The translations under genes were made by a program, and so were the position numbers. A stretch of 64,000 bases of DNA, taken from the NCBI RefSeq assembly GCF_003334785.1, contig NZ_QOWV01000009.1. One strand, 5' to 3'. Shown here in pieces: positions 50,681-55,576 of the stretch (its first letter is position 1; each line of letters starts with the position of its first letter). This DNA is from Escherichia coli. Its GTDB lineage: Bacteria > Pseudomonadota > Gammaproteobacteria > Enterobacterales > Enterobacteriaceae. The notes under the pieces were generated by a model. That model had not been told where the DNA came from. It searched no databases and saw nothing but the letters and a program-made list of their open reading frames with translations.

Positions 50681-50905
50681 TGCCGGATGCGGCGTGAACG
50701 CCTTATCCGCCCTACGCGGTTCTGGCACATTTTGCAGGCCTGATAAGACGCGGCAAGCGTCGCATCAGGCATCGGAGCACTTATTGCCGGATGCGGCGTG
50801 AACGCCTTATCCGGCCTACGGTTCTGGCACCTTTTGTAGGCCTGATAAGACGCGGCAAGCGTCGCATCAGGCCTGATAAGACGCGGCAAGCGTCGCATCA
50901 GGCAT
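50681..50905. repeat. BIME cluster (five REP units) between convergent araJ and mak
   Basis: Alternating units TGCCGGATGCGGCGTGAACGCCTTATCCG(C/G)CCTAC and AGGCCTGATAAGACGCGGCAAGCGTCGCATCAGGC; ~100-bp unit tandemly duplicated, last REP present twice in a row. Confidence 0.9.
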
Positions 50906-53312: not shown

Positions 53313-53519
53313 TGCACGCCACCATTCATCATCTGATTTATCTTTTATCGTAGCCAGTTCCGCAACAATATCTGGAGATCTTCACTGATATTTATATCAA
53401 CCTTGATAAATTATGAATATATCGGAAATTGAAAAAATCGCAGCAAAGGAAATATTATTATGGGCTAAAGAAAGGATATTTCAGAAAAATGCCCTCCCGT
53501 TCAAGGGGAAGGCGAGGAA

Positions 53520-53804
53520 TTACAGATAGCGGCACAGATAAGAGGTGGGTTCGGCAACTTGCAGATGAAACTCACTGTGACCGGGAACATTAAACACCGA
53601 ACCGGCTTCATACACCTGCCAGTCGGTCGCGTCAGGCAGTAACACATTCAGCGCGCCACTGATTACCGTCATCTCTTCCGGCTCAGCGGTGCTGAAGGTG
53701 TATTCGCCTTCAACCATAACACCCACGCTGGCGCGACCAGTGCTGCTGCTGGAAAAGCCGATTGATTTCACTTTGCCGGAAAAGTACTCATTACTTTGAA
53801 GCAT
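53520..53804 (-). CDS. ppnP: Pyrimidine/purine nucleoside phosphorylase PpnP (94 aa)
   Basis: ORF track 94 aa [47 protein letters not shown]... (older name yaiE). Confidence 0.94.
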
Positions 53805-53875
53805 AAACTGGCCCTGTTTGGTAGTTGAACATCTACTTCACTATAGGGGCCAGAGGCGCTGGCTGTCACGCAAAA

Positions 53876-54553
53876 TTACACCAGTAATTCCGCAGCCAGC
53901 CGTGCAATCAATACGTTAGACAGCAAGACAGGAACATCGAGCTGTTTTTGCAGTAAATCGCGATGACGTTGGTGAAATCCTAAACAATCCAGCATGATGA
54001 CATCAGCCCCTTTTGCCAGTAATTCTTTCCCGGCATCAATGATTTTTTGTTCTGAATCATGAATGGGGTTACCCAATGAAAATACCGGCGATTTCTGCAA
54101 AATTTGCCATTTTTGCGCCTGAACGGGCAGCATCTCCTCAACCGGAACGATAACCCCCACCTGATGATCTTCAACAATAGAGGAAACCAGTGGAGGCAAT
54201 ATTCGCGACGGCTCAAGAAAGATCGTATTACGCGCAGTCATACTACTAATGTTTGCTGTACTCATTAATAAAATGACGTCATAACCCTGATTATCGAGCA
54301 CTTCAACCACACCTTGCAGGTCACGCTCCACTTTGCGACGCGAAACATGGGCCAGCTGGTTGTCATTTAATAATGTGAGAATGGTGTCTTCGCCTGCTTC
54401 TGGCGCGTACTCCGCCATCACTTCTTCACGACTTAACTTCCCCAGCAGGCTATGATGGGAAATATTATCTTCGTCAATGTATTCCGTCAGGAGCGGCAAA
54501 ACTTCCTGCATAGGTACAATGCCGATGGTCAGGATCGCCAACGACGCACTCAT
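53876..54553 (-). CDS. aroM: AroM protein of unknown function (225 aa)
   Basis: ORF track 225 aa [40 protein letters not shown]...; downstream of aroL-yaiA. Confidence 0.93.
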
Positions 54554-54810
54554 TGTTCATCCACCTTACTTTTCTTTCGTCGTTAATTACCGGGCAAGTG
54601 TGAAGCACCACTGCTGACACTTACTTGTGCTACAAATGACAAAAAGCGTAGCAGCAGACGTGCACGGCATAATGTAAAGATTCCAAATGATTCCAGTAAT
54701 GGATTGTTATTGTTTAATATTCTAATTATTAGAAAAACATGAATTATGAAAAATGTGACGCAGATCCCTTGTAGTGGCACTCAGAATCCCTTCCGAGCAG
54801 TCTGATGCGG

Positions 54811-55011
<201 letters not shown>

Positions 55012-55051
55012 TTATTTCACGGGATGAACGTTAAGTATAGGCGCTCGAAAA

Positions 55052-55576
55052 TCAACAATTGATCGTCTGTGCCAGGGCGCTGCGAATTTCAGAAATCACC
55101 TGGCTGGGTTCGTTTGTTGCGTCGATGATAATATGCGCAACTTCGCGATATAGCGCATCGCGTTCTTCCAGCACTTCCTGAACTTCTTCGCTCAGCGGTT
55201 TTCCCGTTAAGGTTGGCCGTAAATCTTCTTCCGGTGCAGCTTGCAGTCGGTTAACCAGGACTGATACTGGCGCACACAAATAAAACACGATCCCGTTATT
55301 TTGCATGAAGTGACGATTAAATTCCGTCAGAATAATGCCGCCGCCTGTAGCGATAACGGTGGATGGCGCAGTTACCGCTTCCAGCGCCGCCGTTTCTCTG
55401 GCGCGAAATCCCGCCCACTCTTCCCTTTCGACGATCTCCGCGACCGTCATATTGAGCTGTGATTGCAACCACTGATCGGTATCGACAAACCGACGGTTAA
55501 GCGAATCGGCAAGGGCCATTCCGACCGTTGTTTTACCACAGCCCCGAGGCCCGATCAGAAAAAGAGGTTGTGTCAT
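55052..55576 (-). CDS. aroL: Shikimate kinase II (174 aa)
   Basis: ORF track 174 aa [38 protein letters not shown]... (P-loop GPRGCGKTT). Confidence 0.96.

Follow-up and report, generated by a model that had tools for sequence, protein, structure and literature searches.

The yaiA–aroM spacer of Escherichia coli as a probable composite of a hairpin-ended yaiA 3′UTR and an aroM upstream region

Gaps between the genes of an E. coli operon are usually shorter than ~50 nt, and several described systems offer a comparison where one is longer. The REP stem-loops between malE and malF are the classical intercistronic stabilisers, which shield the upstream mRNA from 3′ exonucleases and let the genes of one operon be expressed unequally. 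Beside them stand intrinsic terminators, the sub-operonic promoters revealed by dRNA-seq and Cappable-seq, the small RNAs derived from mRNA 3′UTRs and the attenuators of trp and pheA. Here, we compare these systems with the spacer between yaiA and aroM, which lies in an operon named aroL-yaiA-aroM in the literature and in which aroM is reportedly co-transcribed with aroL. We consider it probable that this spacer combines a yaiA 3′UTR, ending at a hairpin to which transcripts are trimmed, with the upstream region and leader of aroM, and that aroM is reached in E. coli by read-through.

The window, that is, the whole stretch of 64,000 nt of E. coli DNA that was analysed, carries on its minus strand aroL (55576..55052), yaiA (55002..54811), aroM (54553..53876) and ppnP (53804..53520), as placed from the ORF list and the sequence; window positions are converted by K-12 position = 461981 − window position. 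The identities of aroL, yaiA and aroM agree with those in RefSeq E. coli genomes, including K-12 MG1655, with yaiA (63 aa, RefSeq ‘protein YaiA’) lying 5′ of the spacer and aroM (225 aa, ‘AroM family protein’) 3′ of it. Over the 2.4 kb tested, the window is 100 % identical to E. coli FORC 064. A preliminary description of this DNA had put aroL and yaiA 49 nt apart and yaiA and aroM 257 nt apart (54554..54810), both of which are exact by the ORF coordinates, and had rightly called the longer gap AT-rich (GC 0.40 vs 0.516 for the whole window); the GC minimum within it, 0.30–0.34, lies at 54650–54799. At its aroM end, the spacer carries a Shine–Dalgarno sequence (AAGGTGGA, 54560..54567, minus strand) 6 nt 5′ of the ATG at 54553, and a purine-rich AAGG(T/C)G element in this region is maintained across genera in the alignment.

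The spacer was found in 5,426 of 5,426 complete E. coli genomes at an identity of at least 95 %, and annotation of K-12 MG1655 and of these 5,426 genomes places no feature in it. In the RefSeq record of FORC 064, where locus tags step by 5, RS19335 is missing between yaiA (RS19340) and aroM (RS19330), suggesting that a feature in the spacer was formerly called and then withdrawn. For comparison, we assembled 74 loci with AroM relatives from ~20 genera of Enterobacteriaceae. The order aroL-yaiA-aroM-ppnP is conserved among the Enterobacteriaceae loci fetched, and every one of the 68 loci in which both flanking genes are intact has a yaiA–aroM gap of 186–297 nt, with a median of 237; the persistence of this gap is more than chance. 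Averaged over its length, the spacer changes at the neutral rate, as its mean top-base frequency of 0.55 equals that of the fourfold-degenerate sites of aroM, a conservation baseline of merely 22 sites.

The first 36 nt of the spacer would be the yaiA 3′UTR, ending at a GGA-loop hairpin where RNA 3′ ends accumulate. The hairpin (GCUCGGAA-GGGA-UUCUGAGU, 54798..54779, minus strand) spans 20 nt, with 8 pairs and a GGGA loop (ΔG −8.9 kcal/mol, z −3.64; 1/200 shuffles equally stable). Term-seq placed the ‘primary’ yaiA 3′ end at K-12 407206 (54775, minus strand), 36 nt beyond the yaiA stop (Adams et al. 2021, supplementary file 1), and at least two of the three yaiA entries in the three condition sheets are 407206, with scores of 1001 and 9592. 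This end falls 5 nt beyond the hairpin stem, as the end of an intrinsic terminator does, and the distance from stem to 3′ end is the same as at the canonical terminator after ppnP.

The site resembles an intrinsic terminator in having a hairpin, a 3′ end ~5 nt downstream and the label given to it by authors working on Salmonella Typhi, but differs in its modest stem and lack of a U-tract; the stem is followed by GCCACUACAAGG, with one U in the first 8 nt and no U-run. A canonical intrinsic terminator at 54798..54779 was rejected on this ground. The preliminary description had seen no clear hairpin plus U-run in the spacer, and a consensus scan likewise finds no hairpin followed by a T-run there; the same scan did not call the hairpin at 54798..54779, the stem of which is weaker than those of typical terminators. 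An internal terminator, which that description had also suggested, thus gains a mapped 3′ end at 54775 and loses its canonical form.

Intercistronic stabilisers are a closer likeness. As in those systems, a stem-loop without a U-tract follows the upstream cistron, 3′ ends lie a few nucleotides past the stem, and expression of the upstream gene, here yaiA, is separate from that of aroM. Unlike REP elements, the yaiA hairpin is a single, non-REP structure of 20 nt, confined to the Escherichia, Salmonella and Citrobacter clade and with an invariant GGA loop, and its protective role is putative. A direct orthologue is known in Salmonella Typhi, where StyR-169, a 32-nt stable sense RNA, was cloned from ‘the terminator of yaiA’, confirmed by Northern blot and found to be processed out of longer transcripts. 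In this respect, the site is akin to the small RNAs derived from mRNA 3′UTRs, being the source of a short stable sense RNA, the hairpin of which E. coli shares in conserved sequence; it differs from them in that StyR-169 is just 32 nt long, and its E. coli counterpart is putative, marked by the Term-seq 3′ end.

Nineteen loci from Escherichia, Salmonella, Citrobacter and Intestinirhabdus share the hairpin consensus CTCRGAA-NGGA-NTCTGAG, the sole change in the stem being G·U to A–U and the loop GGA being invariant. In the Enterobacter group, the hairpin is missing and no stable hairpin takes its position, which argues that it is not essential to the design of the locus. Several other genera carry unrelated GC-rich hairpins 3′ of yaiA, and two (L067 and L070) have a hairpin with a T-run. 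Across lineages, a 3′-end hairpin after the upstream gene is therefore recurrent, though neither universal nor homologous. The hairpin of E. coli also has the sequence make-up of a CsrA-type site, its short stem closing a loop that contains GGA and a second GGA lying nearby, a likeness of sequence only; AAGGGAU recurs at 54771..54765, and a further GGA lies within the aroM ribosome-binding site.

The 3′ ends at 54775 would mostly be left by 3′ exonucleases that degrade the RNA as far as the hairpin, once transcripts have been cleaved or terminated somewhere in the AU-rich untranslated stretch downstream. We infer such trimming rather than classical intrinsic termination because the U-tract is missing, and favour it as the source of the 54775 end. 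A live rival is that the hairpin acts as a partial, factor-assisted terminator, either non-canonical intrinsic or dependent on Rho/NusG, which would attenuate aroM relative to yaiA. It would account for a 3′ end 5 nt beyond the stem, in the geometry of the ppnP terminator, for the choice of the word terminator by the S. Typhi authors and for the GC-rich hairpin plus T-run at this place in L067 and L070, and the downstream RNA is untranslated, with a C/G ratio of up to 2.0. Set against this are the missing U-tract and a stem of only −8.9 kcal/mol. The candidate Rho-loading stretch (54782..54645) has a C/G ratio of 1.3–2.0 with C at only 15–17 %, so that it is G-poor rather than C-rich. Among the Rho regions that Adams et al. 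(2021) defined with bicyclomycin, yaiA and aroM have no entry and the site is missing, although low expression could mask an effect. We therefore hold partial termination to be possible but unlikely.

A yaiA transcript is also initiated on its own. The 49-nt aroL–yaiA gap (55003..55051), which the preliminary description contrasted with the 257-nt spacer, contains a textbook σS-type −10 element (CTATACTTAA, 55040..55031, minus strand). Mapped 5′ ends in E. coli lie 25 and 58 nt 5′ of yaiA (55027 and 55060; Kim et al. 2012), dRNA-seq of S. Typhimurium gives a σ38-type yaiA start site with the motif TCTATACTTAA, a σS ChIP-seq peak spans 55006–55105 and YaiA is under σS control in Salmonella. We conclude that yaiA has its own σS-type promoter within the 49-nt gap. 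With yaiA separately initiated, the hairpin would bound a population of yaiA (and aroL-yaiA) transcripts within the longer aroL-to-aroM unit. A further 5′ end, at 54879 (minus strand, 34 reads), was assigned to aroM and lies inside the yaiA coding sequence, and a Klebsiella 5′ end occupies the homologous position (Kim et al. 2012); no −10-like hexamer precedes 54879, suggesting that this end may mark a site of conserved processing rather than a promoter.

The remaining ~220 nt of the spacer would be the upstream region and leader of aroM, made up of an AT-rich core, weak σ70-type promoters, conserved blocks and a strong ribosome-binding site. Here, the comparison is with sub-operonic promoters. 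The locus is like them in that yaiA and ppnP have start sites of their own and in that dRNA-seq of S. Typhimurium maps two primary σ70-type aroM start sites within the spacer: P181, 168 nt 5′ of aroM, with a TATACT −10 (5 and 4 reads), and P182, 131 nt 5′ of aroM, with a TACAAT −10 (9 and 8 reads). Few reads support either start, although the known aroL promoter itself drew no more than 8 and 18 in this dataset. E. coli is unlike the catalogued sub-operonic promoters in that key bases are gone from the equivalent −10 elements and Kim et al. (2012) mapped no start there. By alignment, the P181 element becomes CATGTT (54735..54741, minus strand; start at ~54728) and the P182 element, which adjoins block 2 (ACAATAACAAT), becomes TCCATT (together 54698..54713, minus strand; start at ~54691). 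The score at the P181 position is 1.8 bits in Escherichia vs 7.0 in Salmonella, and TCCATT has lost the −11 A and scores 0.3 bits, the Salmonella −10 elements scoring 7.0–7.2; neither E. coli sequence passes as a σ70 −10 hexamer at the position used in Salmonella. Good hexamers at the P182 position are found in Salmonella, Citrobacter koseri, C. sedlakii and the C. gillenii group, and the position is degenerate in all Escherichia, each without the −11 A. The survey of Kim et al. (2012), which was of limited depth and conditions, has zero 5′ ends in the spacer of E. coli or Klebsiella, its sole ‘aroM’ 5′ ends falling within yaiA. The proposal of a separate aroM promoter in the preliminary description is thus supported in part by the two Salmonella starts, but in E. 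coli it meets degenerate −10 elements and a survey with no start.

We suggest that the aroM promoters of the spacer are active in Salmonella and have decayed by mutation in Escherichia, and that in E. coli most aroM expression probably stems from transcription that starts at the aroL and yaiA promoters and reads through the spacer. If aroM depends on read-through, the spacer would set the ratio of yaiA to aroM expression.

Within this otherwise neutrally changing region, three short blocks stand out. Block 1 (GTCACATTTTT, 54749..54759, minus strand) has the consensus ATCACAyTTTT and a top-base frequency of 0.91, and lies at about −32..−27 relative to the P181 start of Salmonella. Block 3 (GGAATCTTTACA) ends a direct repeat in which TGGAATC occurs twice with a 10-nt period (54673..54695, minus strand); ATCTTTACA, within 54684..54673, has a top-base frequency of 0.89, and block 3 has no other match in the window. 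Block 4 (GCTGCTACGCTT, 54644..54655, minus strand), which includes CTGCTACGCTT, begins exactly 17 nt past block 3 and has a top-base frequency of 0.76 over 68 taxa. Runs like blocks 1, 3 and 4 appeared in 0 of 20,000 neutral simulations run on the 22-site baseline. The exact string ATCTTTACA-N17-GCTGCTACGCTT occurs in 20/76 loci from at least six genera, always in the same place; wherever both blocks are present in exact form, they are 17 nt apart, and blocks 1 and 3 are separated by 81–82 bp in distant genera. Blocks 1, 3 and 4 and their spacing are kept where yaiA is absent, so that the conserved part of the spacer goes with aroM rather than yaiA. Both mapped aroM starts of Salmonella lie upstream of blocks 3 and 4, which are therefore transcribed in that organism.

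The blocks are conserved as sequence and not as structure. RNAalifold on 26 aroM leaders predicted 0 pairs, which rules against the blocks as RNA helix arms, block 4 included; no reading frame across them is open in all taxa, and they match no Rfam family. The boxA (Nus-factor) consensus is GCUCUUUAACAA, and block 3 (AAUCUUUACAUU) does not come within 3 mismatches of it in an ungapped comparison; matches to boxA at 3 mismatches number 62 in the window vs 53 expected, the chance level. The blocks recur nowhere else in the window beyond chance. By inspection, the consensus sites for CRP, TyrR, σ54, σ32, σE, MarA/SoxS, CpxR and DnaA fit them unconvincingly. Block 1 does fit the right half-site of CRP, and the full 22-mer of E. 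coli agrees at 16/22 positions by inspection, but in the Enterobacter group the left half is 1 bp out of register and the CRP site was rejected; a TyrR box in the blocks would violate the G-N14-C rule (by inspection). Any role for the conserved blocks is one that we infer. We tentatively suggest, as a possibility rather than an expectation, that blocks 1, 3 and 4 form a DNA operator or an RNA-level site for a candidate regulator dedicated to aroM.

Some loci depart from the common layout. In a Pluralibacter metagenome-assembled genome (L039, 1–701) and in ‘Enterobacteriaceae bacterium 89’ (L048, 2189–3001), yaiA is wholly absent; aroL and aroM are 257–289 nt apart, blocks 1, 3 and 4 are present and a GC-rich hairpin lies immediately 5′ of block 1. 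In Escherichia albertii (L071, 2132–3001), yaiA is apparently truncated, with only residues 23–55 matching, and the aroL reading frame extends to 257 nt before aroM, its end overlapping this match; the overlap suggests a deletion that joined aroL to the 3′ part of yaiA. In the Enterobacter group (e.g. L033, ~2815–2850), Escherichia block 2 is replaced by three GTTAA/GTTAT direct repeats with 11-bp phasing (aTGTTAAgtagcaGTTAATatttaGTTATT), a pattern that we take to resemble ArcA direct-repeat sites.

It is possible but unlikely that the E. coli spacer also holds an aroM promoter that works under particular conditions and is silent in standard cultures. Its −10 might, for example, be the extended −10-like TGcTACGCT in block 4 or TACATT at 54676, with block 3, which includes the −35-like TTTACA, as an activator site. 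For E. coli, promoter or polymerase-binding evidence consists of one weak SELEX peak for the RpoH holoenzyme, obtained in vitro (Shimada et al. 2017, Table 3; 406536 in an older numbering, +776 giving K-12 407312), with an approximate footprint of 54620..54720, unassigned to strand, and a centre at ~54669, between blocks 3 and 4. RNA polymerase may, on this evidence, be able to bind the spacer of E. coli, but the peak has an intensity of 3.6, barely over the cut-off of 3.0, its resolution is ~100 bp from fragments of 200–300 bp, and the σ32 consensus is poorly matched by inspection; the spacer is absent from the RpoD-holoenzyme list, in which only the yaiI/aroL spacer is present. The 17-nt spacing of blocks 3 and 4, fixed in six or more genera, would suit a promoter, and TTTACA matches 5/6 of the −35 consensus, but it stands 22 nt from TACGCT, and the hexamer 17 nt away, GCTGCT, is not a −10. 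A σ70 weight-matrix scan of 68 taxa gave 23 with at least 5 bits and a −10 at the column of 54676; its hits are all weak (5–8 bits), and none coincides convincingly with the conserved blocks. The zero start sites in the E. coli and Klebsiella survey (Kim et al. 2012) and the upstream position of the Salmonella starts, which puts blocks 3 and 4 inside the transcript, also speak against it.

It is very improbable that the spacer is an RNA leader, attenuator or riboswitch-like, through which a metabolite or tRNA would regulate aroM. The spacer is like the trp and pheA attenuators in its aromatic-pathway operon and its long untranslated stretch before a gene, to which one might add the conserved blocks and the very short ORF ATG-TTT-TTC-TAA (Met-Phe-Phe) at 54740..54729, but it lies between genes rather than before the first gene and lacks a leader peptide with regulatory codons, alternative hairpins and a terminator hairpin with a U-run. 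No ribosome-binding site precedes the Met-Phe-Phe ORF, which falls in a non-conserved segment, and no leader-peptide frame is open across the relatives. Folding of the whole spacer, the scan that the preliminary description had asked for, gave z −0.47, no better than shuffles; Rfam at E≤5 returned one spurious lncRNA match (E=4.6), and the absence of pairs from the RNAalifold prediction meant that no covariance model was built. The attenuator of that description is therefore not sustained, and an RNA-leader reading is effectively already refuted by the lack of conserved structure. It is just as hard to credit that the spacer encodes a small protein, since the 27-aa ATG ORF (54670..54587) and the 65-aa GTG ORF (54780..54583), though both are open in E. 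coli K-12 and a handful of Escherichia and Citrobacter share the 27-aa frame, are missing from Salmonella, Enterobacter and some Escherichia (L005, L006), the alignment indels are not multiples of three and the spacer is unannotated in K-12 and the 5,426 genomes.

Downstream, the aroM–ppnP gap contains a promoter-like GTGACA-18-TATAGT (53869..53840, minus strand; 10/12 matches), and Salmonella dRNA-seq maps a start site with the same elements 27 nt 5′ of yaiE/ppnP, from which it follows that ppnP has its own promoter. The only canonical terminator nearby by consensus scan is that after ppnP (53513..53481, minus strand), an 8-pair GC-rich stem with a T-run, inside which a Term-seq 3′ end is mapped (K-12 408495, window 53486; Adams et al. 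2021). The Rho table of the same study lists antisense Rho-dependent regions on the plus strand opposite aroL and ppnP/yaiE (K-12 406662 and 408419; window ~55319 and ~53562). Elsewhere in the window, GATGCGACGCTT occurs in three copies within 150 nt (50755..50899, minus strand). These copies are presumably a cluster of REP elements.

Apart from its unexplained blocks, the spacer is ordinary sub-operon architecture, most components of which are already in public genome-wide tables. The textbook aroL-yaiA-aroM operon emerges as a set of nested units, comprising a TyrR-controlled aroL promoter, a σS-type yaiA promoter, a hairpin-defined yaiA 3′ end, aroM promoters that vary between lineages and a separate promoter and terminator for ppnP. 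This nesting affects how expression data are read and how metabolic-engineering edits at aroL are judged, and its practical value is modest. The aroM gene is conserved and has been of unknown function since the 1980s; a factor that binds the blocks could give a first handle on when AroM is needed.
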